Of a stretch of DNA of 64,000 bases, positions 2,930 through 62,100 are shown piece after piece. The position numbers and the translations under genes were made by a program. How positions within the stretch are numbered: the stretch's first letter is position 1; every line of letters starts with the position of its first letter. The notes below the pieces were generated by a model. That model saw only the letters and a program-made list of their open reading frames with translations, had not been told where the DNA came from and ran no database searches. The stretch comes from Candidatus Omnitrophota bacterium (GTDB taxonomy: Bacteria; Omnitrophota; Gorgyraeia; Gygaellales; Profunditerraquicolaceae). Location: positions 4,921-68,920 of the forward strand of contig JAPLLR010000046.1 in assembly GCA_026387455.1 (NCBI GenBank). Direction: 5' to 3'.

Positions 2930-2993
2930 ATAAACAATGTGTAACGGCAGGCATAAAGCGAATAGAATTTAAGGGAGAAAGACGGCTAAGCTT

Positions 2994-4322
2994 ATGGAAA
3001 AAGAAAGAATTGCGATAGAAAACGAGATTCTGGACAGGCTGGCAGGCAAGATCTTTCTTTTGCAGGACCGGGCGAATAAGCGCGATATCATTTTTCAGAA
3101 GTTCCTGGAGGTGTATAATTCTATCCCCGGACAGGGGCTGGTGAGCAAGTTAAAAAACACGGACATGGAAGTCCTTTTTAATGATTTTTTTTCTTACGGG
3201 TTGATCGACGAGTTTCTTTCTGACCCAAAAGTAGAAGATATCATGATCAACCATCTTTCTCCTATATACGTGCATAAGACAAACTCCGGGTTGGTTAAGA
3301 CAGATAAGAGGTACACCTCCCGCGAAGAGCTGGATCTGTTGATTAAAAAGCTGGTTATTTTTTCTGGCAGGAAAGAAATCAAGAAGATCAACAATATAGA
3401 GCTTGCTGAGGTTAAAGGAAGAGGCAACATAGTTTATTCTCCTTTCGGGCCGCAGATCACAATCACGCGCGCCAAGGAAAAGCCGCTAAGCATAATTGAG
3501 TTGATTGAGAATGGTACGCTTAACCCTGAGATCGCTGCGCAGTTCTGGTTTTATGTGGAAGGATTAGGGGTTAAGCCCGCAAATATTGTCATATCCGGCG
3601 GGCCCGGGGCGGGAAAATCCACGCTCTTAAACGCGCTTTTTAGTTTTATTCCCGTACATGACCGCATTGTAGTCATTGAAGATACTCTGGAGTTAAATAC
3701 CACCCTTCAGGAGAATTGCTCGCGCCTGGAAAGCGATGAAGATGTATTGCTTATGGATTTGGTGAAGAACTCCCTGCGTATGCGGCCGGACAGGATCATT
3801 GTCGGCGAGGTCCGCGGCCAGGAAGCCCAGGATTTGATGACGGCGATGAACATCGGTAAATACTGCATGGGAACAATGCATGCTTCTACCGCCAGGGAAA
3901 CGATCATCAGGCTTCAGAACGAGCCGATGAATGTTCCGGAAGTATTGGTAAATTTAGTGGATGTATTTGTGATTATGCGGCGTTATAATTTAAACGGCAG
4001 AATTAGCCGCGTGGTCGGCGAGCTGGCAGAGACTGCCGGTATGGCGGATAAGACGATCTTGCTTTCTACGCTATGGACTTATGATTTAGGAACGAATAAT
4101 TTTAAAGAATCTTCCGTAGGCAGCGAATACCGCGATAGGCTTGCGTTAGTGAGCGGTAGGAGCACAGTGGAGATTATGGAAGAATTGAAGTTTCGCTCCG
4201 GTATTATCAGGGCGATGTTGAAAAAAGGCATTAAGGAAATGAAGGATGTAACGGAATTTTTCCAGAGGTATGCCGCTGATCCCCGAGAGGCGGCCGCTTC
4301 ATTAGGCATTAAGAGTAGTTAG
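2994..4322 (+). CDS. second, paralogous CpaF/VirB11-like secretion ATPase (442 aa) with an N-terminal extension
   Basis: Walker A ISGGPGAGKSTLLNALF (about 3590-3640); RPDRIIVGEVRGQEA motif shared with the upstream paralog; SD AAGGGAGAAAG before the ATG. Confidence 0.85.
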   Translation: MEKERIAIENEILDRLAGKIFLLQDRANKRDIIFQKFLEVYNSIPGQGLVSKLKNTDMEVLFNDFFSYGLIDEFLSDPKVEDIMINHLSPIYVHKTNSGLVKTDKRYTSREELDLLIKKLVIFSGRKEIKKINNIELAEVKGRGNIVYSPFGPQITITRAKEKPLSIIELIENGTLNPEIAAQFWFYVEGLGVKPANIVISGGPGAGKSTLLNALFSFIPVHDRIVVIEDTLELNTTLQENCSRLESDEDVLLMDLVKNSLRMRPDRIIVGEVRGQEAQDLMTAMNIGKYCMGTMHASTARETIIRLQNEPMNVPEVLVNLVDVFVIMRRYNLNGRISRVVGELAETAGMADKTILLSTLWTYDLGTNNFKESSVGSEYRDRLALVSGRSTVEIMEELKFRSGIIRAMLKKGIKEMKDVTEFFQRYAADPREAAASLGIKSS

Positions 4323-4335
4323 GGACACTTCCTAC
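4320..4335. repeat. left terminal inverted repeat of the IS200-like element
   Basis: TAGGGACACTTCCTAC; overlaps the TAG stop (4320-4322) of the upstream ATPase gene. Confidence 0.75.
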
Positions 4336-4440
4336 CTTAGTAACATCATTTATATCAAGCACTTAGGATAATCAGGCTAAAATTCCACAAATTTTTCTGT
4401 TAGATTTTGCCACTTCCTTCGTCTATTATAGTGAGGAGGA

Positions 4441-5058
4441 ATGGTTATGTCTAGGACGGCACGCTTCATTCCACGGTATGGCTATCTACACATTATGTCA
4501 CGAGGTAATAATCGCCAACGCATTTTCTCATATGCACGCGACTATCGATTTTATTGCTCATGTTTGAGGAAACTTAAGGCAGAGGAGTCAGTTAAGATTC
4601 ATCACTATTGCTTGATGCCGAACCACCTACACCTTTTGCTTGGTGTAGGGCCGGCAAGCAATGTCGGCCGCTTCATGCAAAGGCTTGGGCTGAAGTATTT
4701 CTACTATTATCGCGCAAGGCGCGATTATATAGGGCATCTATTGCAAGGTAGGTTTAAGAGCAAGATAATTGTTGATGAAAAGTACTTTCTGCAATGCGGA
4801 AAGTATATTGAGTTAAACCCGGTGCGAGCGCAGCTGGTGAGTTTTCCGGAAGAATACGCTTATTCAAGCTATCGGCATTATGCCTTAGGAGGGGAAGATG
4901 AGATCGTCGATGACGACTTTTTCTATCTTAGCCTGCACAACGATGCCACTCGTCGAAAGGAGCTTTATTCAAATATGCTCTTTGATGAGAAAGGGTGTGC
5001 GAAACAATTGCATATTGATTCTTCTAACTTAATGTTTAACAATGAGTTAATAGAGTAG
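4441..5058 (+). CDS. IS200/IS605-family Y1 HuH transposase (RAYT-like), 205 aa
   Basis: HuH motif HHYCLMPNHLHLLL; conserved downstream region with catalytic-Tyr candidates (EYAYSSYRHY); SD AGGAGG at 4431-4436. The functional start may be the ATG at 4447 (MSRTARF...), which has better spacing. Confidence 0.85.
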   Translation: MVMSRTARFIPRYGYLHIMSRGNNRQRIFSYARDYRFYCSCLRKLKAEESVKIHHYCLMPNHLHLLLGVGPASNVGRFMQRLGLKYFYYYRARRDYIGHLLQGRFKSKIIVDEKYFLQCGKYIELNPVRAQLVSFPEEYAYSSYRHYALGGEDEIVDDDFFYLSLHNDATRRKELYSNMLFDEKGCAKQLHIDSSNLMFNNELIE

Positions 5059-5070
5059 GAAGTGTCCCTA
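5055..5070. repeat. right terminal inverted repeat of the IS200-like element
   Basis: GTAGGAAGTGTCCCTA; contains the transposase stop TAG (5056-5058) and, on the other strand, the TPR gene stop (CTA 5068-5070). Confidence 0.75.
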
Positions 5071-6132
5071 ATATCTTTTTTTAGAGCGAATAAACTCGGC
5101 TTTTTCAGATGCCTCTTTGGCTTTATCAGGTTTATTCATCTTTCGATAAAACTTTGCCATATTTTCCAGAACCTTGGCTACGTTTAGATGTTCCTGCCCA
5201 AGATTGCTCATCATTATCTCCAGAGAATCTTCATAAATATTCACTGCTTCTGCATATCGGGTTTCTTTTAAATAAAGCATAGGAAGATTATCTAAAACCC
5301 TGGGTGCATCCGGATGCCAAGGGCCGATATAAAGGTCATTGATATCCATTAGCCGTTTATAAATAGGCTCATTGATTTGTGACCATAGCTTGGCTGCCTC
5401 TGATTTAAGGCGGTTTATTGCCTTGTCAATGCTGGCATCCTCTTGATAAAAACAACTCTTGAACACTCCCCAGGCATACCTGTAATATTGTTCAGCTTCT
5501 GTAAATTTTTGCTGTTTTTCATATAATTTACCCATATCGGATGCCAAACGAATCAGTTTAGGATACTCTTGTCCGGAGTCTGCGATTGCCTGTAGGGAAG
5601 TCTTTAAAATACTTTCCGCCTCGGCGTATTTATGCTGATCCAGATATAAAGAACCTAGGTGGCTACGGACAATAGCAACGGCAGGATCATTGCTGCCTAA
5701 GTTTTTCTCCAGTATGTCTATAGAATTATTGTAAGAACTTTCCGCCTCGTTGAATTTACGCCACGCCTGATAATTCTCTCCCAGGGCATTCCAGACTTTA
5801 GCTGTATAAAGATTATCCAGCCCCAGGGTTAATTCATAGATTCCCAAAGCTTTTTGATAAAGCTCGTCAGCTTGCGCATAGTTGCCTTTAATCTTATAAA
5901 GAGTTGCTAAATTATTAATCATTGCAGCATCGTTAGGATGATCAGGCCCGAATTTTTTTTCAATTACGCCCAGGGCGCTAGTGCCCAGATCTATAGCTTT
6001 TTGATAATCCCCATAGATATAGGCATCGTTATATCCGTCAAGATATTCTTCAACTTGCCAGGATATATCTTCTTCAGCGTAAATTGAGGTAAATACAACA
6101 GCTATAAAAATGGCGATTAGAATCTTGCGCAT
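5068..6132 (-). CDS. TPR-repeat protein with N-terminal signal peptide (exported or lipoprotein-like), 354 aa
   Basis: N-terminus MRKILIAIFIAVVFTSIYA is a signal peptide. The body has recurrent 34-aa Tyr/Ala/Leu-patterned TPR-like units (e.g. AMINNLATLYKIKGNYAQADELYQKAL); convergent with the transposase. Confidence 0.8.
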   Translation of the reverse strand: MRKILIAIFIAVVFTSIYAEEDISWQVEEYLDGYNDAYIYGDYQKAIDLGTSALGVIEKKFGPDHPNDAAMINNLATLYKIKGNYAQADELYQKALGIYELTLGLDNLYTAKVWNALGENYQAWRKFNEAESSYNNSIDILEKNLGSNDPAVAIVRSHLGSLYLDQHKYAEAESILKTSLQAIADSGQEYPKLIRLASDMGKLYEKQQKFTEAEQYYRYAWGVFKSCFYQEDASIDKAINRLKSEAAKLWSQINEPIYKRLMDINDLYIGPWHPDAPRVLDNLPMLYLKETRYAEAVNIYEDSLEIMMSNLGQEHLNVAKVLENMAKFYRKMNKPDKAKEASEKAEFIRSKKRY

Positions 6133-6216
6133 TCATTCCTCCGATTTAACAACTTTAAGATCTTAATTATATTATAGTCTATTTCTTTCGATTTTACAAA
6201 TACTTTTGTCTCAAGC

Positions 6217-6260
6217 AATGTCCAATCTGTAATAAACTAGGCAAGGAATGTCCATTATTA
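6217..6260. promoter_or_regulatory. two direct copies of an AATGTCCA(A/T)T-containing 14-mer upstream of the 6393 gene (candidate operator or short repeat)
   Basis: AATGTCCAATCTGT at 6217-6230 and AATGTCCATTATTA at 6247-6260; two more copies lie just downstream of the same gene (7647-7680). Confidence 0.35.
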
Positions 6261-6392
6261 CCCAGAGACGCTTTTAGCTTTGGCTTGAGGGGTGCTTTTG
6301 TTTCTAGGAGAGAAAACGCTATCAATTAGTTAGTTTTTAGCGTTGATAAAGTTGGTCTGCATGTTACACTTTACCTATACTGGAATAAAACT

Positions 6393-7637
6393 ATGGAAGG
6401 CCTAATGATTGCAAAGCCAGCAAGATTACTTATTTTAGTTTTAATAATTGTTTTGAGCCTATTGTCTTCTAGGGTTGAGGCAGAAGATTATTATAGCGGC
6501 AACCCCTACTCTTCTCCGGAGCCAAGTTCTTCCGACAATCAGGCCCCCAATAATAGTTACAATAATTCCACGGTGATAAGCTCGTTTAATCCGCAGCCCG
6601 GCGGAGTAAATAATATTCCTAATAGTTACAATAATTCCACGGTGATAAGCTCGTTTAATTCGCAACCAAGCGCAGCTTATAAGGCCCTTAATAGTTCCAA
6701 TAATTCTATGGTGATAGGCTCGCTTAATTCGCAGTCCGGCGCAGCTTATAAGGCCCCTAGCAATTACAATAGTTACACGGTGATAAGCCCGTTTAGCTAT
6801 AACACATCTTCGCAGCCCGGCGGAGGATATAATAACTCGGGCAGCATAACAAGCTATCCTAACAGTTACAACAATTCCACGGTGACATATTCGTTTAGTT
6901 ATAACACACCTTCGCAGCCCGGCGGGGGCTATAATAACTCGGGCAGCATGACAAGCTATCCTAGCAGTTACAATAATCCCATGCTGACAAGCCCGTCTAG
7001 TTATACCACGCCTTCGCAGTCCGCAGAAGCTTATGATAACTCAGAAAGTATATACTCCAGCTCTGCTTCGCTATCCAATTACAATAGCGCTACTAATACG
7101 CCGAATTATGATAATACTGTGGCTCAAAGCGCCCCAACAATATATAATGATTTATCAGAAGCTATTTATAACTCTCCGGTAGTAACACAAGCCGAGAAAT
7201 TTGGTTTAAGCGTAGAGAAAATCGGAGGGGGGGTAGGGATTACGCCGTACGATCCTGTGAAAGATGCTGTTGTATCAGCTCTTAACGAAGGTTATGAATC
7301 AGTTGTAGTAACCGGCGAGGGGGTATTGATACCCAATCCGATACAAGGTGACAAGAAAAGCGTAGTTATAGACAATAATAATCCTTCCCTTATCGGGCCG
7401 AATGGTCTTTATAGTACGTACAGGTCTACAGCAGATTTGCTCGGGGATATTTCTTCTCATGATGCTAAAGTGGCTGCGGCAGCATATACCCCAACTTCAG
7501 TAGCGCAACCGACTGGCATGCTTTCTAATTATAGCCCGGCACCTGTAAATTATAAAAGCGATACTCCAACAAGTCAGAATTATCAGTATAATGTAGCGAC
7601 CCCACAGGTTGAAGATCCCCAAATAAAGGTAGAATAA
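6393..7637 (+). CDS. secreted Asn/Ser/Tyr/Pro-rich low-complexity repeat protein, 414 aa
   Basis: Signal peptide-like N-terminus (KPARLLILVLIIVLSLLSSRVEA); a series of degenerate repeats of about 23 aa NSYNNSTVISSFN(P/S)QPGG...; ends TAA at 7635-7637. Confidence 0.7.
   Translation: MEGLMIAKPARLLILVLIIVLSLLSSRVEAEDYYSGNPYSSPEPSSSDNQAPNNSYNNSTVISSFNPQPGGVNNIPNSYNNSTVISSFNSQPSAAYKALNSSNNSMVIGSLNSQSGAAYKAPSNYNSYTVISPFSYNTSSQPGGGYNNSGSITSYPNSYNNSTVTYSFSYNTPSQPGGGYNNSGSMTSYPSSYNNPMLTSPSSYTTPSQSAEAYDNSESIYSSSASLSNYNSATNTPNYDNTVAQSAPTIYNDLSEAIYNSPVVTQAEKFGLSVEKIGGGVGITPYDPVKDAVVSALNEGYESVVVTGEGVLIPNPIQGDKKSVVIDNNNPSLIGPNGLYSTYRSTADLLGDISSHDAKVAAAAYTPTSVAQPTGMLSNYSPAPVNYKSDTPTSQNYQYNVATPQVEDPQIKVE
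6541..7010 (+). repeat. tandem coding repeats of about 69 nt (about 23 aa), roughly 7 units, inside the 6393-7637 gene
   Basis: aatagttacaataattccacggtgataagctcgtttaat recurs with variants at 6541, 6610, 6679, 6748, 6840 and 6930. Confidence 0.7.
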
Positions 7638-7680: not shown

Positions 7681-7852
7681 TCTGATTTCTTCATAGACGT
7701 GAAAATTGGGTCAGGATTATGTTTTTGCTTCAACTTTAGCTAAATAAATGATTCTCATCACCATTTTTTAGCAGGAAGTAAACTCTTTTAGTTGCAATAA
7801 TTAGCGGATTTTAAAGGAAAGAAAGCGGTATCAAAACAAGTAGATTTTATGC

Positions 7853-7880
7853 TTGACAGCGACGATCTTAATGATATACT
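7853..7880 (+). promoter_or_regulatory. strong sigma70-type promoter candidate for the giant ORF: TTGACA-N16-TGaTATACT (extended -10)
   Basis: TTGACA at 7853-7858; TG at 7872-7873; TATACT at 7875-7880; predicted transcription start about 7887, about 250 nt upstream of ATG 8140. Confidence 0.55.
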
Positions 7881-7886
7881 TTGGGT

Positions 7887-8139
7887 GTAATGAAACGAAA
7901 GGGCAAACCAGGAGTAATCCTGGGGCGCAAAGCCGCGGATCCTAGAAGTTGGATTAAATAATTTTAAGTTTCTAGTTGTTAGGATAGCCGGGCTGCCGAA
8001 TACCGACGAAAAAATCAGTATTTGCCAGTTCGGCTTTTATTTTTAAGTAGTTAATAAGTAGTTTTAAAAATACTTTATAAACGAGAATATGAAAAACAAG
8101 AGGTTTTACCTCATAGTATTTAAATTAAAAGTATAATAA
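7887..8139 (+). promoter_or_regulatory. long structured 5' leader of the giant ORF (candidate regulatory RNA element)
   Basis: Hairpin CCAGGA-GTAA-TCCTGG (7908-7923) with a GNRA tetraloop; further pairing potential at 7936-7956; weak hairpin plus T-run at 7995-8044. No tRNA or known riboswitch signature recognised. Confidence 0.3.
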
Positions 8140-11100
8140 ATGCCTAATCAAAAGCCACGGACAGAAGAAGAGAATTCGCTAGAGCAACCCGAGACCCAGG
8201 TGAAATTTGTTTCCAAGTTCCAGGCCTGGATCCGCGTGGTTGCTTTTATTGTTGTAGCGGTCTTTCTTCCGGAGCAGGTAGCCCAGGCAGCGCAGTATGA
8301 TTGGCGCGTGCTCTGGAACAAGCCCGGCGTGACAACTTTTACCCCCAACTATCTTGCTAATCCTGATTCTCTGCGCAATCTGGATATCCCCCTAACCATA
8401 AAGAAGATCCTCAGTGACATCGCCAATAAGCAAGTCAATGCCATAAAGCTTTCTGACAATCTTACCATTGAGCTGGATAGGCCTCTAGAAATGTCCACTG
8501 TGCGCATTGAAGAGATCTTCAACTGGCTCAAGGGCAGGCCTTGCGGCTCAAAAGCGCTTTATGATTTCTTAAGCTTTAAGGGTATCCAAGCCTCTGAGCA
8601 AGATATCGCAGTAATGGCTTTGACCGTGGATATCTTAAATAACGTGGTTAAGCCTGAAGGAAACCCCGAAATTATTCTCAACTCTCTATATGCTTTGTCT
8701 AAGGCTTCTGAGTTCTTCGGCCTTAAGACTTATCCGGTTAAGCTTGCAATAGGAGAGCCTGTTGCTTCCTTAGCGCCATTCTTGGCCCATGTCAACGGCA
8801 ATCACTATGTCTTAGTTACGCGCATAGCAAATGGCAAAGTATATTTCAGCGATCTGCATAAAGAAGAATTTTTGGCCCTAGATAAATTTGCCGAGAAGTT
8901 TACCGGCAATGCTTTAGTCACTCAGCTGATTGATGGCGTTACTGAGCTTAGCGTTAAAGAAGCGATGCAGGTGATGGGGGCAAATGACGATGATTTTGTT
9001 GGGCCTCCAGCTCCAGCGCCCGCTCCACCTAGCTCAGACTTTGTTGGGCCTCCAGCTCCTGCACCAGCTCCTGCACCTGCATCTGCTCCTGCGGCTCCAA
9101 GCTCGGCTTCGTTAAACTCAGGCTATCAGCCGGGCGGCTATAATGGTAATACTTGGGTTCCTCCTTCTGTTGCTACTGCTGATGGCGGTAGGGTTGCTGT
9201 AGGGCCGGTTAGTTCAGGGATAGCCGAAGCCTATAACGCAGCAAATGCAGCGCCTTCACTATCTGCGCCGGCTCCATATTTAGATCGTTTTCAAAGTTCT
9301 GATCTAGGCACAGCTCCTACACCAAAATATGTGGCTCCTTCAGTATCTGCGCCGGCTCCTGTCGCTCCAGCGGCAATAAAGTCTGCTGATTATGCAAGAC
9401 GGCAACAAGCCGAAAACGCATTTAGCTATAGTCCCGGAGCAGGCACTAGTGATTATTATAAAGTCCCGGTAATAGACCAAGAGACAGGGCAGACCATAAG
9501 AACAGAATTAGTGAACAAGCACATTACAGATAGTGCTGAATCTCGCAGAGTCGCTGAAGGATTATTAAAAGATCAGGGCATACAGGTCCAGGGATCTACC
9601 TTGACAACCCTTAAACCTTTAGAACAGCTTGGCACCGCACCTCTTCTCCCGGATAAAATTTTATTTGCAGGAGATGGTAAAACGCCATTTTTGTCATCAC
9701 TCCCTTCAGCGACTAACGGTATTCCTAATTTGGTGGAGCACCAGATCTTGGTGGTGGCTGAAAAAGGAACTCTTCATTATAATATGTATGTTCCTCAAGC
9801 AAACGCTGATATTGCGCCTATCTATGTAGGAGATCATGCTCAGCTGAAAGGGACTCCAGGTTGTCCGAGTGGAATTTGTATGGATGCTGGCTGGAAAGGT
9901 GATACTGCAGCTCGTAATGATGGTGCAGCTTTTGTAGATATTAAAACATGGACGGGATGGCATACAACTACAGGCGAAGTCGCACCCTATGAGCAATTTA
10001 CTAATGGGGTATTTCATATTGGTAAAACTGCGTCAGAGCCACATTTCTCAGGAAACCCTATTGAGAGAGTAATTTTGCAAGATAACGTTGCAGTAGGCAT
10101 TAGTACGCTAGGCCAAACTTCTGCTTATCAACAGCCGGTTGTACTAACTGATGGTACGAAAGTTTCTGCTGAAGGCTGGAGAAATAATTATACGGTTAAT
10201 GTAGTCAAACCGGTTGTCCAGGTAGGACCGGATTTGAAAAACACAAGATATGATGGTTTCTATGTATCGCATGATCAAGCTGGGAATTCTGTTGGAGTAA
10301 GCCCCCTGATGACTAGAGTGGACATAATGGCAGATGTAAACCAGAGGAAAAGTCAGGGGGAGCTATACACACCAACCATGCCCGGAGATAATGTCATAGT
10401 TTTCGCCGGAGATGTAAATTCTTATATTTCAACCGGGGCTGCGATGACTAAAGTTGAGGCATTTGCAAGAGTTCCTAAGATTACCAATGATTTTTATAAT
10501 TATCAGTGGGGCAATAATTTTTATCAGCCTAAAGAATTAGTTGGTTCAGCAGAAAATTATGCTACCGGGCAGGTAATACCTTTTACTAACCCTCAGGAAT
10601 TTATTGATAATACTCATATTAGAATTGCCGCTCCTTTGCAGGATGGAGTTAGCGCTACCGGAGAAATAACCAGTATGTCCGGCTGGAAACAGGATGGTTT
10701 TATGATCCCGCTTGCTCCTTTTACCTCGGCCGACGGGATGGGTTACACAAAGAACGAGCTCACCGGAAAAGTAAAATCGTTCAAGATAGAGGGGGTTGAT
10801 TTTAAAGTTGATTATGCCGCCAAGCAGCCCGATATATTTAATCAGAAGTTATCGGTATATGGCACCGGAGAAGCATTCGCGGTTTTACCGCCTTATAAAA
10901 CGGCGACTGATGGAGGGGCGAGCATCTATATGACAGGGACTAAGGTTGAATTAGGTGTGGGATATAAGGCGGGAGATTCAATAGCAGTTATTTCAACTCA
11001 AGGTATTCAAGGAGGCCGGATAGAATTTCTCGTGCCGAATTTAGATATTAATAAGAATATTCAAGATCAGATAAAAGATGCTACCCAGCCTATGGTTATA

Positions 11101-14100
11101 CAAGATATAAACTTCAACCCCGGATACCAGGCGCAGTTTGCTAGGGATATAAATAAGGATAATACGATCGCGCTTTCCAAGGATGTGTTAGGCGGTAAGG
11201 TTGAGTTCTGGGGCGGGGGAGTAAAGTCATTGTACAGTGGCGAGATAAAGCCTTTAGGCAACAAGGAAGCTTTCTTTAATACTCACGCTGTCGCCGATAG
11301 GAACTTGGGCTTGGAAACAATATACAAGTTTGATAAGCAGGGCCTGACCTACAGCGGGTTACATGCATGGGAGCTGAATAAGTTCATTACCCCTTCAATA
11401 CAAGATCTAACAGGAATTCAGGAAGAGATGAAGAGTACCTTCATCGGAAAAACCCAGAACTATAATGAGGTATTTATTAATAAGGATCAGACGGTTTTCT
11501 ACAAGCCGGAAATATACAATGTTGGCGGCGCAAAAGCAGGACGCATCGAAAAGCTTTCTGTTGAAAAGCTTGCTGATCCTGCGACGTTTAGGACCAGCGA
11601 GGAAAGCAAACATCTTTACAAATCCACCGCGCTTACTCCGGATGCCAAAGTCGCTATTATTCATGCGCAGATCACCGGGCCTGAGCAGCTTAAGACTGAT
11701 GCTGCTACCTTTAGCCCGATGTTTGCGAATGTGCGGCACCAGTTTGAAGGCGGGATAGAAAAGTTTGTTGCAGCCGTGGAGCTTAATGACGCAGGTAAGA
11801 TAAAAGGCGAGGTAATTGCTATCGCTGATGTAAGAGCCTCTGCTGGTCTGCGGGATATCTTTAAAAATAAAGTTGAGATTAAAGGGGATAAGTATGCTTT
11901 AGAAGGGCTTAAAGGGAAGACGTATGAGCTCAATACAGCGGGTTTTGTGCAAGGGCAATTCATCAAAGGCAAGGGTGGCGCGTTATCCGGATGGAATAAT
12001 ATAGATGTGACAACAGATCAATTCCTTGCAATTACCGGAAGACAGGTAGAGAAAACTGATGGGTATCTTAAGGGTGTTGATCTTTGGATTTCGGATGGCG
12101 GCAGCAGAATCCAGGATGTCGGCTATGATAAGGCGAATGCGGGAAGTGGTTTTTATCGTCCGTTAGCTGCGGATAGGGCAGCAGATTTCAACAAGACTAG
12201 AATATGGAAGAACGAATTTGGCAAGGAATATGTAAAAATAGACACCAAATTAGGCGCACTTCCCGGTGATCAGCGCGATACACCCTACCTCATGGTTACC
12301 GATAAAAAAGCGCAGCCGGTCATGGTTGGCATAGGAGAAACTAACACGCAGATGCTGGAGATGTTCGACCAGCTGCACATGGCACGGGCCAACAACGATA
12401 CAGCGCGCATCGCAGAAATAAACAAGAACATAGAAGCAGAAACAACCAGGATAAAGGCGCAGTCCGCAACTTCCGGCAGTGATGGCTGGGATAAGGTATT
12501 TAGCGAAAAAAGGGCTCTGGATTATTCTAAACAAGGTAAATATATCTATGCTGCCGGAAACCAGGTTGCTACTTTTGCTATTAATGAACTTGTCAGCGGC
12601 AATGTGGCCCTATCAGGAGATTTCCGCGGGACCGCTAATACCGGAAGTGTTCTGAATATGAAAGATGAGATCGCAGGGGTCGCCACCACAGTTTTCTTAA
12701 ACAAAAATCAGGAGGCAGCTTTTACAAAAGGTATTTTTAGCGGCGGCAAAGGATTCGCTGATCCAGCCCATGCGGATCTGGGGCAGGTGCTTATAAACAA
12801 TCAAGGCCAGGTTACCAGCGGATATTTCTATGCCGGCACACCTAATCAGCGCGCTACAGAGATCCAAGAGACTATTGTAGAAGTCAAGACAGCAGATGCG
12901 CAAGCTGCAACCGGAAGAATGTTGCTTAAGGATTATTGGTATGAAGCAAAAGGAGCAGCAGATCCTTCCAAAATAGAGCTTCTTGGCGGCACAGTCAGGC
13001 AGGCGCAGGTAGCAGGCTATAATTTGTTGACCAAGGAAACTTCGCTTATAGATTTCTCAAGAAACGGTAATAAGGATAATACTTTTGTGACCAGGGGAGA
13101 TGCTGCTATTCCGTGGCTGGTGCCTGTGGTGGATGGATTTGTGCCGGCAAAAGGCGGGGAAAACAATCCGGATAATCAGGCGCCCTATGCAATGGCGTAT
13201 GAATATAAAAAGGCAGCTCAGACGGATCCGGTGCACACCCTGATCAGCGGGCCGCAGCATCTGGTCTTCAGTCCCACCAATAAGATCACTTCCGAACAGG
13301 GCAGGGTAACCCGCGATATGCTGGACATGAAGAATATTAAGATCGAAGGGGATTCTGCTAGCAAGCCCATTCCTTTGTCAGCGCAGGTGGACAGAGATTT
13401 TAATGTCAAGGCAAGCAAGGGGTTTGAGTTTGTCGGCTCCGGGCAATTGACCACTGATGAGCGCGGCAATATGCAGTTTAATGGCAAGGAAACTAATGTC
13501 AGAGAATATGCCGGCAGCGAAAAAGCCCCTATTGACAGGATGACCCGTCAGGTGTTTGTCGAGGGATTAACGGAACCGATAGAAATGGAATTCCAGAAAG
13601 GCTGGTATAAGACAGATACATTCGGAAATCCTGCAGACGGAGCAGCTGAGGCGGTAGGACTTCAGGGAAAGATGTTTAAGGGCATGAAGCTGGACGGCAT
13701 GGGTCAATTCACATTTGAGGGAAACCATGTAAATTTAGTCCAGGAAATGAGACGTATTGAGGATGTTGAGAAGATAAACCCCCGTGACGCTCAAACTCAG
13801 GCTGCTCTTGAAGCAAAAGTAAATGACATAGTTGCACAAACAAAACCGGAGTTTTCTAAGCCCATCAGCATAGAAGAGGCGGTTAAGCAGATAGCCCAGG
13901 CTTATCTTGATTATAACGCAGAGGGTGCACATTATCATCCTAATGGTGTAGATCCTCGCGGACAGGATAAGAACTGTTTTGGCTTTGCTGTTGATCTTCA
14001 AAACAGGCTTGAACAGATAGGCGTACACAGTACCGTTATACAGGTGGGTGATGGGGATGATCATGCTGCACTTTTGGTAAGAACAGAGGGCGCCAACGGC

Positions 14101-59100: not shown

Positions 59101-62100
59101 GGCCTTGAAAGAGGAAAGATGATCCAGCTCATCCTGGTCCATGAATTAGGCGCGCGTTTCGGATTTGCCCACGAATCCAACATCAGCCTTGAGGAGATCT
59201 ACAAAGGTTATATGGGCTGGGGCTCTGAACAGGCTAAGGCCGGCGAGGAATTGCTGAACAGATTAGACAATTTATTCCAGAAGACCCACACTATCGTAGA
59301 TTACAATTATGACGGTGATGGTACAGACCTTGCAGCCGCTGATGCTGCAGGCGACGCAGAGCCGTTGGCTCTGGATCCGTTTGCTCCCGGGACTACCGAA
59401 TACGAGTTGGTGCACGAGAGCGCGTTCCTGAGTCTTTTTGGCGTGAGCAGCTATGATGACTGGGTTGCATCTTTTGGAGAGGATTCCGCTGCCCTTGACT
59501 GGGTAGGCGGCAGGGCTCAGGAAGTAAGCAGTAATTATGGAGGCAGCGTCAGCGCTTATATTAATGATCTTACGGTCGTGCAGTCGTTATCTACGGCTTT
59601 AGGTAGCGCTTCTATGGGAGCAAAGACGATTTTCGAAGGCGCTTATCAGGTGAGCATTACTCAGCTTACTTGGCATACTACTGCATATATGACCGAATTG
59701 TTTAGTGTTGTGGGCAGTTCTGATTGGGAAGGGGTAACACAGTTCATTGATTTCTTAGAGAAAGTCGCTAACTTTGACGCAGCTCTTAAGTCAAGCTCCT
59801 ATAGCACTCAGATAGATGCCGATATCTTATACAGCGCTTTTGGCGTGCGTTTCTTAGATGGCATCAGTAAGGCAGAGCTTGGCATAATCGGAGACGAACA
59901 GTACGGTATACTTTATGACGAGCAGGGTAATGTCAGGGATGCCAGCGACGCTATTAGTTTCTATGAGTCGGTGTATCTGTTCTACGCCGCTTGGCAGTCC
60001 AGTTCTGTCTCAAGCCAGCTTAACTCTACCATATTTGTACCTGCTTTCGGTCTGGATATTTCTAACGGCATACAGGCCGCTGACCTGGTCATCTTCGGCA
60101 ACCAACATTACGGGCTGCTTTACGATGAGTCCGGCAACGCTAGAGACGCCAATCAAGCCATAGATTTCTATACCAAGGTATATCAGTTCTACGCCGCCTG
60201 GCAGTCCAGTTCTGTCTCAAGCCAGATTAATTCCACGATTTTTATCTCGGCCTTTGGCCTGGATCTTTCTAACGGCATACAGATAGCGGATTTGTTAGTG
60301 TTCGGTAACCAGCAATACGGATTACTGTATGATGAGTCCAACAACGTTAGAGACGCCAATCAAGCTATAGATTTCTATACCAAGGTGTATCAGTTCTACG
60401 CCGCCTGGCAGTCAAGCTCTGTCTCAAGCCAGATTAATTCCACGATCTTTATCCCAGCTTTCAGCCTGGATCTTTCCAATGGTATACAGATAGCGGACCT
60501 GCTGGCATTCGGTAATCAGCAGCAGGGTTTACTCTATGACGAGCAAGGTAATTCTAGAAGCGCTAGTTCCGCTATTGAATTCTATGGGGCAGTATATCAG
60601 TTCTACGCCGCCTGGCAGTCCAGCTCTATGGCTAGTCAGGTCAACGCTACTTTATTCATTCCTGCTTTCGGTCTGGATCTTTCTAACGGAATCCAGGTTT
60701 CAGATTTGCTCGCGTTCGGCAACACGCAGTATGGCTTGCTTTATGATGAACAGGGCCACGTCAGAAGCGCAGATGCGGCTTTAGATTTCTATATTTCCGT
60801 TTATCAGTTCTACGCCGCATGGCAGTCTAACTCCTTTGCCAGCCAGATAAACTCCAGCATATTCATCTCTGTCTTCGGCCTGGATCTTTCTAACGGTATC
60901 CAGGAAGCTGATTTAATCATATTCGGCAACACGAATTATGGATTGCTCTTTGATGAGCAGGGCAATTCCAGGAATCCCAACGACGCCATAGATTTCTATG
61001 AGGCGGTGTATCAGTTCTACGTCGCTTGGCAGTCTAGCACTTACGCCGTAGCCATCAATACCCTGATCTTTAACTCCGCTTTTGCTGGGCTGGATCTCTC
61101 AGATGGTATTCAGATGGCGGACCTTTCGGCATTTGGTAACAGGAATTACGGCATACTGTATGATCAGGCAGGAAATTTAAAAGACCCTAATGCCGCGATC
61201 GATTTCTACGAGGCAGTAGTAGAGTTCTACAACGCCTGGAATGCCTCTAGCCTGAAGAATGACATCAACAGCATCATCCTCGGCCCTGTCTACGGCATCA
61301 ACTTAAGCGACGGTATCAGCGAGGCAGAGCTTGCCGCCTTCGGACGCAACGACCAGACGACCGGACATTACAATCCGCTTTATGACGATCAGGGCAATCT
61401 CAGGGATCCGCAGGACACCCTGGACTTCTTCGCGGCAGTGGTCAGCTTCTACAACGCCTGGAACGCCTCTAGCCTGAAGAACGACATCAACAATATTATT
61501 TTTATTCCTGCATACGGTTTGAATCTGGCAGATGGGTTAAGCGAAAGTGAGCTGAGCATAATGGGCGATGGAACTTTAGGCATACTTTATGAAACCGCCG
61601 ACCACTTAAGGGATGTAGATAGGGCCATGGAGTTCTATGAGGCCATAATCGTCTTCTATCAGGCCTGGAACGCTTCGCCTTTAAGGAATGAGATCAATAC
61701 ATTGATCCTGATCAACGCCTATGGTATCGACTTATCTGACGGCGCTATACAGTTAAGCGAATTGAGGGCTTTGGGTATCTACGAGTCTATTCCCAACGCT
61801 CCGCTTCTATATGACGAGAACGGGCAATTAAGGGACGCCGCTGACACAATGGATTTCTTTGAGGCGGTCGTGGGCTTCTATCAGGCTTGGAATACTTCGT
61901 CTTTAAGGAATGAGATAAATTCCCTCATCTTAATATCCGTCTACGGCATAGACTTATCCGACGGCATTAATATTTCCGATATAAACGCCTTCGGCAATAA
62001 AGACCCGAATAAGCCGTATATGTTATATGACCAGGACGGCAACCTGAATAACGCATCTGACATCATCGATTTCTTTGAACTGGTGGTTGAGTTCTATCAG

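Follow-up and report, generated by a model that had tools for sequence, protein, structure and literature searches.

A probable REPtron/TIRtron-type unit between an ATPase gene and a convergent TPR gene in a Candidatus Omnitrophota contig

We analysed a 64,000-nt stretch of the Candidatus Omnitrophota contig JAPLLR010000046.1 (hereafter the window, within which all positions are counted), in which a short transposase gene bracketed by perfect inverted repeats lies between an ATPase gene and a convergent TPR gene. This segment (4319-5071) is most probably a unit of the REPtron/TIRtron type, consisting of a HUH tyrosine transposase gene that resembles those of the tyrosine transposases linked to repetitive extragenic palindromes (REPs), called RAYTs, and of inverted copies of its cognate repeat. 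Comparison with related loci, which are designated by L numbers, suggests that the unit was gained or lost as a whole and was then inherited vertically as a single selected gene with two arms. The coordinates of the unit and its neighbours are given in Table 1.

An original prediction, made from the letters of the window alone, had described perfect 16-bp inverted repeats that supply stop codons to three genes. Direct reading of the sequence confirmed that TAGGGACACTTCCTAC occupies 4320-4335 and that positions 5055-5070 hold GTAGGAAGTGTCCCTA, which is its reverse complement without a mismatch; one further base was found to pair perfectly, which extends the inverted repeat to 17 bp (TTAGGGACACTTCCTAC and GTAGGAAGTGTCCCTAA). 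The list of open reading frames (ORFs) likewise places three TAG stop codons inside the repeats, namely those of the ATPase, the transposase and the TPR genes, and the same three overlaps are present in L040, a syntenic locus described below. In the flanks searched, ~2e-5 perfect 16-mer inverted repeats are expected by chance (~1e5 position pairs, 4^-16 each). Because of this low expectation, and because homologous inverted arms accompany nearly every homolog found, the repeat is not attributable to chance.

A scan of metagenome contigs yielded 80 further loci with transposases of 41-93% identity, and arm statistics were obtained from the 70 loci in which the contig extends for 200 nt or more upstream of the gene and for 120 nt or more downstream, using the core GGGAC(G/A)N(T/C)(T/C)C. 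The forward core is present within 400 nt upstream of the start codon in all 70 loci, and 62 of them also have the inverted core just past the stop codon. The left core lies ~61-82 nt or ~120-141 nt before the start and the right core ~9-57 nt after the stop. The closest homologs on other contigs (L003, L004 and L012; 71, 66 and 65% identical, respectively) have homologous ends and differing flanking genes, and L004 possesses a perfect 17-bp inverted repeat of its own (CTAGGGGACGCTTCCTA). Over 21 nt, the identity between arms was 0.81 within a locus versus 0.64 between loci, and none of 2000 permutations reached the observed value. Therefore, the two arms of a locus co-evolve. The shared sequence is GGGAC(G/A)nTTC, often preceded on its outer side by TAG, and the stems TAGG/CCTA, GAGG/CCTC and AAGG/CCTT co-vary around a loop holding GGACGnTT, with a modest effect (mean stem 3.36 bp versus 2.96 +/- 0.07 bp with shuffled partners). 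The paired inverted repeats are thus a genuine feature that the gene family has conserved. The pairs had been predicted to be REP-like and headed by GTAG; the pairing is indeed conserved, but the GTAG head is limited to the subclade of the window, L040 and L003. One arm of L004 reads ATAG, and the sequence in most of the family is AGAAnCGTCCCC, without GTAG. In several relatives, two or three tandem copies of the arm are present on one side of the gene, in arrays that resemble bacterial interspersed mosaic elements (BIMEs) (L095, 10680-10750 and 13074-13123; L099, 1147-1182; L102, 6497-6530 and 7260-7335).

The transposase gene most likely starts at ATG 4447, 7 nt after the ribosome-binding site (RBS) GAGGAGG (4433-4439), and encodes 203 amino acids. 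This start agrees with the recorded 203-aa product P0001, to which the genes in loci L001 and L002 translate exactly, and with the N-termini of all homologs, so that the 205-aa protein first proposed, read from ATG 4441, is less likely. An identical gene is present on contigs of the sequencing runs SRR20698647 and SRR20698646. Its identification as a HUH tyrosine transposase stood up to a profile check (Pfam Y1_Tnp, 42.5 bits; cut-off, 23), and 32 homologs of 41-71% identity share invariant N59, H60 and H62 and an invariant block C117-G-K-Y120-I-E-L-N-P125 (CGKYIELNP), which is the helix of the catalytic tyrosine. Among the NCBIfam models, REP_Tyr_transpos (NF047646) scored best (65.1 bits, E=6e-18), whereas transpos_IS200 (NF033573) reached 19.1 bits, well under its cut-off of 55. 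In a profile search against PDB sequences, the best match was 4er8_A, the E. coli TnpA_REP (E=5e-9), with ISDra2 TnpA at 1e-3. An AlphaFold model of the 203-aa protein (mean predicted local distance difference test score, 82) gave the same ranking in Foldseek, where 4er8_A was the best match (E=1e-7; target-normalised TM-score, 0.74; 160 columns) and the IS200, IS608 and ISDra2 transposases came next (TM-score, 0.54-0.68). Of the earlier designation 'IS200-like/RAYT-like', the second half is thus upheld and the first is weak. The named homologs of both the transposase and the ATPase are almost all from Candidatus Omnitrophota.

The history of the locus is best seen in L040, which is syntenic with the window over positions 2975-7023 at 85% nucleotide identity and whose transposase is 93% identical by tblastn and 92% identical in a full codon alignment. 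All 32 arm bases are identical between the two loci (32/32), and the transposase genes are 93.8% identical, whereas identity is 81-84% where the host genes adjoin the unit. By the Nei-Gojobori method, the synonymous divergence (dS) and the ratio of nonsynonymous to synonymous divergence (dN/dS) are 0.18 and 0.21 for the transposase gene, 0.29 and 0.15 for the ATPase gene, and 0.42 and 0.24 for the TPR gene. The low dN/dS and the identical arms therefore show that the unit is under purifying selection, with the gene and both arms in place since the two lineages split. A recent horizontal replacement of the unit was also considered and was not retained, as the transposase gene has a lower dS than its flanks, but not decisively so.

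The corresponding junction is empty in L119, which is more distantly related than L040 and whose ATPase ortholog is 86% identical. In L119, the ATPase gene ends with TAA, a 17-bp spacer (TATGATTTAAAAGTATT) follows, and the TPR stop, TGA, is adjacent, with no transposase gene in between. Thus, the unit is a discrete insertion/deletion difference between lineages, in line with its initial description as an element placed between the ATPase and TPR genes. It may have been gained once, on the side of the window, or may have disappeared from the lineage of L119, and either direction fits. The ATPase orthologs in L122-L124 have different downstream contexts and were unhelpful for defining the empty site. 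For the TPR gene, the comparison with L119 contradicts the further suggestion that the element had re-terminated its neighbours. The TPR protein ends in ...KRY-stop at the same codon position in the window (TAG) and in L119 (TGA), which indicates that the TAG of the right arm is at the native stop position, and the ATPase is just two codons longer in the window than in L119, within a set of orthologs that spans 440-449 aa.

These data must be weighed against the possibility that the 750-bp unit is an active autonomous insertion sequence (IS), in which the 17-bp repeats are the functional ends and which moves in its entirety, and not a stably inherited RAYT-type gene. Evidence for such an element comes from L095, L099 and L103, in which the genes are 99% identical but lie between non-homologous flanks; the left limit of homology is exactly AAACTAGGGGACGCTTC and the right limit exactly GAAGCGTCCCCTAGTTT. 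The repeat-bounded unit thus appears to have moved or to have been transferred recently in at least one subfamily, unless the metagenomes were mis-assembled at the repeats; because such mis-joins are possible, the evidence from these three loci is weakened. The empty L119 junction, the sharp shift in window-L040 conservation where the left arm meets its outer flank, and the lower dS of the transposase gene (0.18, versus 0.29 and 0.42 in the flanking genes) also fit an active IS. However, the window contains a single copy of the unit, and its site and orientation are unchanged in L040 across a dS of ~0.2-0.4. Most of the near-identical gene pairs share their flanks, and each such pair therefore represents one organism sampled twice. 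A scan of viral contigs detected no relatives, and a plasmid search detected only homologs of at most 42% identity, on 27 of 72,556 plasmids. Together with the low score of the IS200 profile, these observations make an active autonomous IS unlikely.

Several relatives carry the motif far beyond the two arms. The window, L040 and L004 have no copies other than the two that flank the gene, whereas L039 (70% identity) has six motif copies in 5 kb and L056 has 11 in 20 kb. Extra copies were also found in L073, L079, L095 and L096, and those of L073, L079 and L096 include close inverted doublets, which recur at spacings of 54-56 bp in L079 and of 35, 48 and 73 bp in L096. L119 encodes another RAYT (160 aa; 40% identical to that of the window) downstream of two T2SSF genes and contains 13 copies of GGGACACCCTT in 13 kb, mostly as inverted doublets ~33 bp apart. 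The RAYT and repeat sites of L119 are located at 3229-3898, 8663-8741, 10138-10212 and 11232-11276, and one doublet is inside a giant gene. These scattered singlets and doublets resemble REP and REPIN populations.

Some of our results weigh against a REPtron/TIRtron-type unit in the window itself. The 16-mer has no further copy with up to two mismatches in the 64-kb window, of which ~1.5 kb is intergenic, and the loose core has no extra copy in the window, in L040 (17.6 kb) or in L004 (12 kb). A REP population, from which the RAYT name derives, is therefore unsupported for the window lineage. A single 16-mer site with three mismatches (9305-9320) is at chance level for the 64-kb window. An exact 16-mer scan of a genome collection lacking the source genome gave 25 single matches, all outside the Omnitrophota and in taxa unrelated to one another. 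For extra repeats, the window offers little to sample, because a single giant ORF occupies 8140-64000 and only ~1.5 kb is intergenic. The arm is a weak imperfect palindrome (TAGG-GACACTT-CCTA), and as single-stranded DNA (ssDNA) with 20-25 nt of flank it folds no better than shuffled sequences (z -0.2 to -0.8), so that a strong REP-like palindrome was rejected. As hairpins, the arms fall far short of classical REPs in both length and strength. A weak stem of ~4 bp with modest covariation is all that the data support. Finally, the REP_Tyr_transpos score of 65 bits falls below the curated equivalog cut-off of 80. Because this model is nevertheless the best one, and because 4er8_A ranks first by both sequence and fold, we regard the putative enzyme as a RAYT-like HUH/Y1 protein, related to the E. 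coli type but divergent and no equivalog of it.

Instead of being substrates of transposition, the arms could also control expression, mainly through mutual pairing or as operators bound by protein on RNA or DNA. They would then form, for example, a 17-bp long-range stem that encloses the mRNA of the transposase when transcripts read through, or they would delimit a segment that can invert. This would agree with the perfect complementarity of the arms and their co-evolution within loci, with the overlap of three stop codons, which places the arms in transcribed 3' ends, and with the known action of REPs at the RNA level (PMC3733652). Pairing across the gene cannot explain, however, why relatives carry the motif far from transposase genes as singlets or short doublets; moreover, many loci have arms whose complementarity is imperfect beyond the conserved core, and an inverted orientation of the segment was not seen between the window and L040. 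We therefore consider a role in pairing or expression control very improbable. A coincidental repeat, or a host feature such as a terminator hairpin split by insertion of the transposase gene, might be suggested by the position between convergent genes, where terminator hairpins are common, and by the T-run TCTTTTTTT after the right arm, but it is effectively refuted by the chance expectation of ~2e-5, by the homologous arms that flank homologs in unrelated gene contexts and by the L119 spacer TATGATTTAAAAGTATT, which contains no such hairpin.

E. coli TnpA_REP and IS608 TnpA provide the analogy for a mechanism that we propose for the favoured REPtron/TIRtron-type unit. In this mechanism, the enzyme would bind the arm as a small imperfect ssDNA hairpin with the stem TAGG/CCTA and the loop GACACTT, and would cleave near the arm via a 5'-phosphotyrosine intermediate. 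This activity may have copied or moved arms and may once have moved the entire unit. We propose this mechanism because E. coli TnpA_REP binds the REP hairpin only as ssDNA and cleaves at C^T, including CC^TAC opposite GTAG (PMC3333891). A corresponding cut in the window would fall on the outer side of the arm, at GTCC^CTA or CC^TA.

The outer foot of the motif reads TAG, and host genes that reach the motif would end on it; the three stops would thus lie in the repeats because host genes running up to the motif end on its foot TAG. Over all motif instances, in loci that are not phylogenetically independent, we counted the ORFs of 100 or more codons whose ends lie no more than 40 nt from the motif. 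Twenty long ORFs end exactly on the TAG of the outer foot (TAG-GGGAC) and 16 others run past that point, whereas random reading frames would give one-third ending on the motif TAG. The overlap with stop codons is therefore a habit of the family and not peculiar to the window locus. The element may bring the TAG, in which case the surviving copies are those insertions that ended a host ORF harmlessly, or insertion may be targeted next to a TAG. The equal position of the TPR stop at the empty L119 site fits both readings.

Table 1. Features of the transposase unit and adjoining genes in the window
Feature	Position	Strand	Basis or remark
FlaI/TadA-like ATPase gene, 442 aa	2994..4322	+	ORF list; TAG stop 4320-4322
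Left inverted-repeat arm TTAGGGACACTTCCTAC	4319..4335	+	Outer TAG 4320-4322 is the ATPase stop; identical in L040
Inner non-coding leader	4336..4446	+	Conserved block and RBS GAGGAGG; alignment with relatives
203-aa HUH/Y1 ssDNA transposase gene, probable RAYT/TIRYT type	4447..5058	+	TAG stop 5056-5058 within right arm
HUH motif H60-L61-H62	4624-4632	+	Homolog alignment
Catalytic Tyr120	4804-4806	+	Homolog alignment
Right inverted-repeat arm GTAGGAAGTGTCCCTAA	5055..5071	-	Reverse complement of left arm; identical in L040
Convergent TPR gene, 354 aa	5068..6132	-	ORF list; TAG stop, read CTA at 5068-5070

The leader between the left arm and the gene contains a block (~4393-4429; TTTTTCTGTTAGATTTTGCCAC...CGTCTATTAT) that is kept in an alignment of relatives of 65-93% protein identity, and the leader is 91% identical to that of L040, as compared with 81-84% for the flanking coding DNA. 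It is possible that this conserved leader serves as a promoter, an operator or an antisense promoter. A consensus scan detected no clear plus-strand sigma-70 promoter in the conserved leader, the only match being antisense (TAGACA-17-TATAAT, 4453->4425 on the minus strand, 11/12 positions). This match overlaps the conserved CGTCTATTAT and runs opposite the transposase start codon and leader, an arrangement that recalls the antisense RNA of IS200. An internal 8-mer that matches the arm core (CACTTCCT, 4411-4418) was considered as a third binding site and rejected, since its equivalents in L003 and L004 do not track the arms of their own loci. In L003, the 71%-identity relative, the leader has an extra insertion of two GC-rich hairpins (~3505-3590), GCCCCCGCGC...GCGCGGGGC and GCCCCGCT...AGCGGGC, and the loops of both hold ATAGGAAG, which resembles the inner end of the arm. 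In an Rfam scan of 3900-5500, the sole match was DUF805b, below threshold (16.6 bits; gathering score, 35.6).

Upstream of the unit are two T2SSE-family ATPase genes, which encode a TadA/VirB11-like protein (357 aa) and the FlaI-like protein (442 aa). Downstream, the convergent TPR gene is followed by a repeat-rich ORF of 414 aa and then by the giant ORF. The 414-aa ORF (6393-7637, +) is rich in Ser, Asn, Tyr and Pro, contains 69-nt and 102-nt tandem repeats (6551-7061) and has no Pfam match. The giant ORF (8140-64000, +) is open at the end of the window, comprises at least 18,620 codons and looks like a giant Omnitrophota protein; tandem repeats of 207-nt units (59888-61015) and 213-nt units (62026-62664) are present in it, and a gene of ~16,970 aa was called at its position in L119. 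A gene downstream of the unit in L012 is shared with window positions 7809-8916. RAYT-like genes recur at the edges of one Tad/type IV pilus-like gene cluster; in L003, L004 and L119 they follow two T2SSF genes, and in the window and L040 two T2SSE ATPase genes. This recurrent placement could reflect a hot spot or an old linkage.

Our analysis extends the RAYT/REPtron-TIRtron elements to the phylum Omnitrophota, whose members are ultra-small and for the most part uncultured. The related loci also form a comparative series for the co-evolution of a transposase with its recognition sequence and for host retention, in which the site is occupied (window), syntenic with invariant arms (L040) or empty (L119), and in which scattered repeats and a unit in new contexts are also represented. 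We tentatively raise the possibility, in itself rather doubtful, that the locus represents a large undescribed RAYT-like clade of Omnitrophota and candidate phyla with the core GGGGACGnTTC (reverse complement, ...CGTCCCC). Such a clade would span autonomous units (L095/L099/L103), REPIN-like swarms (L079, L096 and L119) and solitary host-retained genes (window), and its repeats would dock preferentially where the foot TAG can take the place of a neighbouring gene's stop codon or fall on it. If its CGTC core is related to the 'CGTC-tagged' REP superfamily, which was reported without a dedicated transposase (PMC3733652), the clade would be a candidate for providing that transposase.

Compared with the IS200/IS605 family (IS200, IS608 and ISDra2), the window protein has the HUH/Y1 catalytic fold in common. 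Neither type generates a target-site duplication (none was seen at the ends of the unit by inspection of the sequence), and small DNA hairpins are the recognition elements in both. However, the subterminal hairpins of IS200/IS605 elements are directly oriented on one strand without terminal inverted repeats (TIRs), whereas the ends of the unit are inverted repeats; moreover, IS200/IS605 elements are typically multi-copy and found on plasmids, whereas the window holds a single copy.

The similarity to REPtrons is greater. Nunvar reportedly used the term in 2010 for RAYT genes with inverted REP flanks. The E. coli tnpA_REP gene (a RAYT, also called yafM) with its REP/BIME sequences was treated by Ton-Hoang in 2012 (PMC3333891) and reportedly also by Nunvar in 2010 and by Bertels and Rainey in 2011, and the TnpA_REP structure, PDB 4ER8, is said to have come from Messing in 2012. 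It is this protein that is the top match of the window transposase by structure and by sequence. Both are single genes bracketed by inverted cognate repeats, with vertical inheritance and purifying selection, and the dispersed doublets of the relatives resemble REPINs. In contrast, the window arms are 16-17 nt long with a 4-bp stem, whereas REPs are imperfect palindromes of 30-40 nt, and the 203-aa window protein has a C-terminal extension that is absent from the 165-aa E. coli enzyme. REPs of the GTAG type have a conserved GTAG foot and a palindrome of 20-40 nt, which the arm family of the window does not share. RAYT genes flanked by inverted REPs constitute REPtrons (PMC3333891). As a rule, RAYT genes are single-copy and are passed on vertically, and the 16-mers at their flanks are over-represented, although the flanks are weakly repeated in some groups (Bertels 2017, PMC5581495).

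TIRtrons, in which RAYT-like genes (TIRYTs) are flanked by TIRs instead of REPs, were described by Di Nocera, De Gregorio and Rocco in 2013 (PMC3733652). Some of these TIRs share a GGGGWSAS motif, and TIRtrons also occur in species without a repeat family; a host genome may have no TIR family, a moderate one or an abundant one, the 3' end of the gene can lie within a TIR, and the termini of GTAG-REPs supply TAG stops to flanking ORFs (PMC3733652). The window unit is similar in that a RAYT-like HUH/Y1 gene is associated with a pair of terminal inverted repeats and not with long REP palindromes. The window arm, (A)GGGACAC, and the GGGGACAC of relatives fit GGGGWSAS, and the overlap of the 3' end by a TIR, allowed in the described cases, is found in the window. 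The comparison with TIRYTs covers their published description. The dominant core here, GGGGACGnTTC, has G at the seventh position, where GGGGWSAS has A, and the described hosts are Acidobacteria, Stenotrophomonas and other cultured bacteria, whereas the window clade comes from metagenomes of Omnitrophota and candidate phyla. Both RAYT-like genes between TIRs and TAG stops provided by repeat termini were published in 2013 (PMC3733652), and the unit is thus no new kind of system; what is new here is the phylum and the large uncharacterised clade for a known kind of element.

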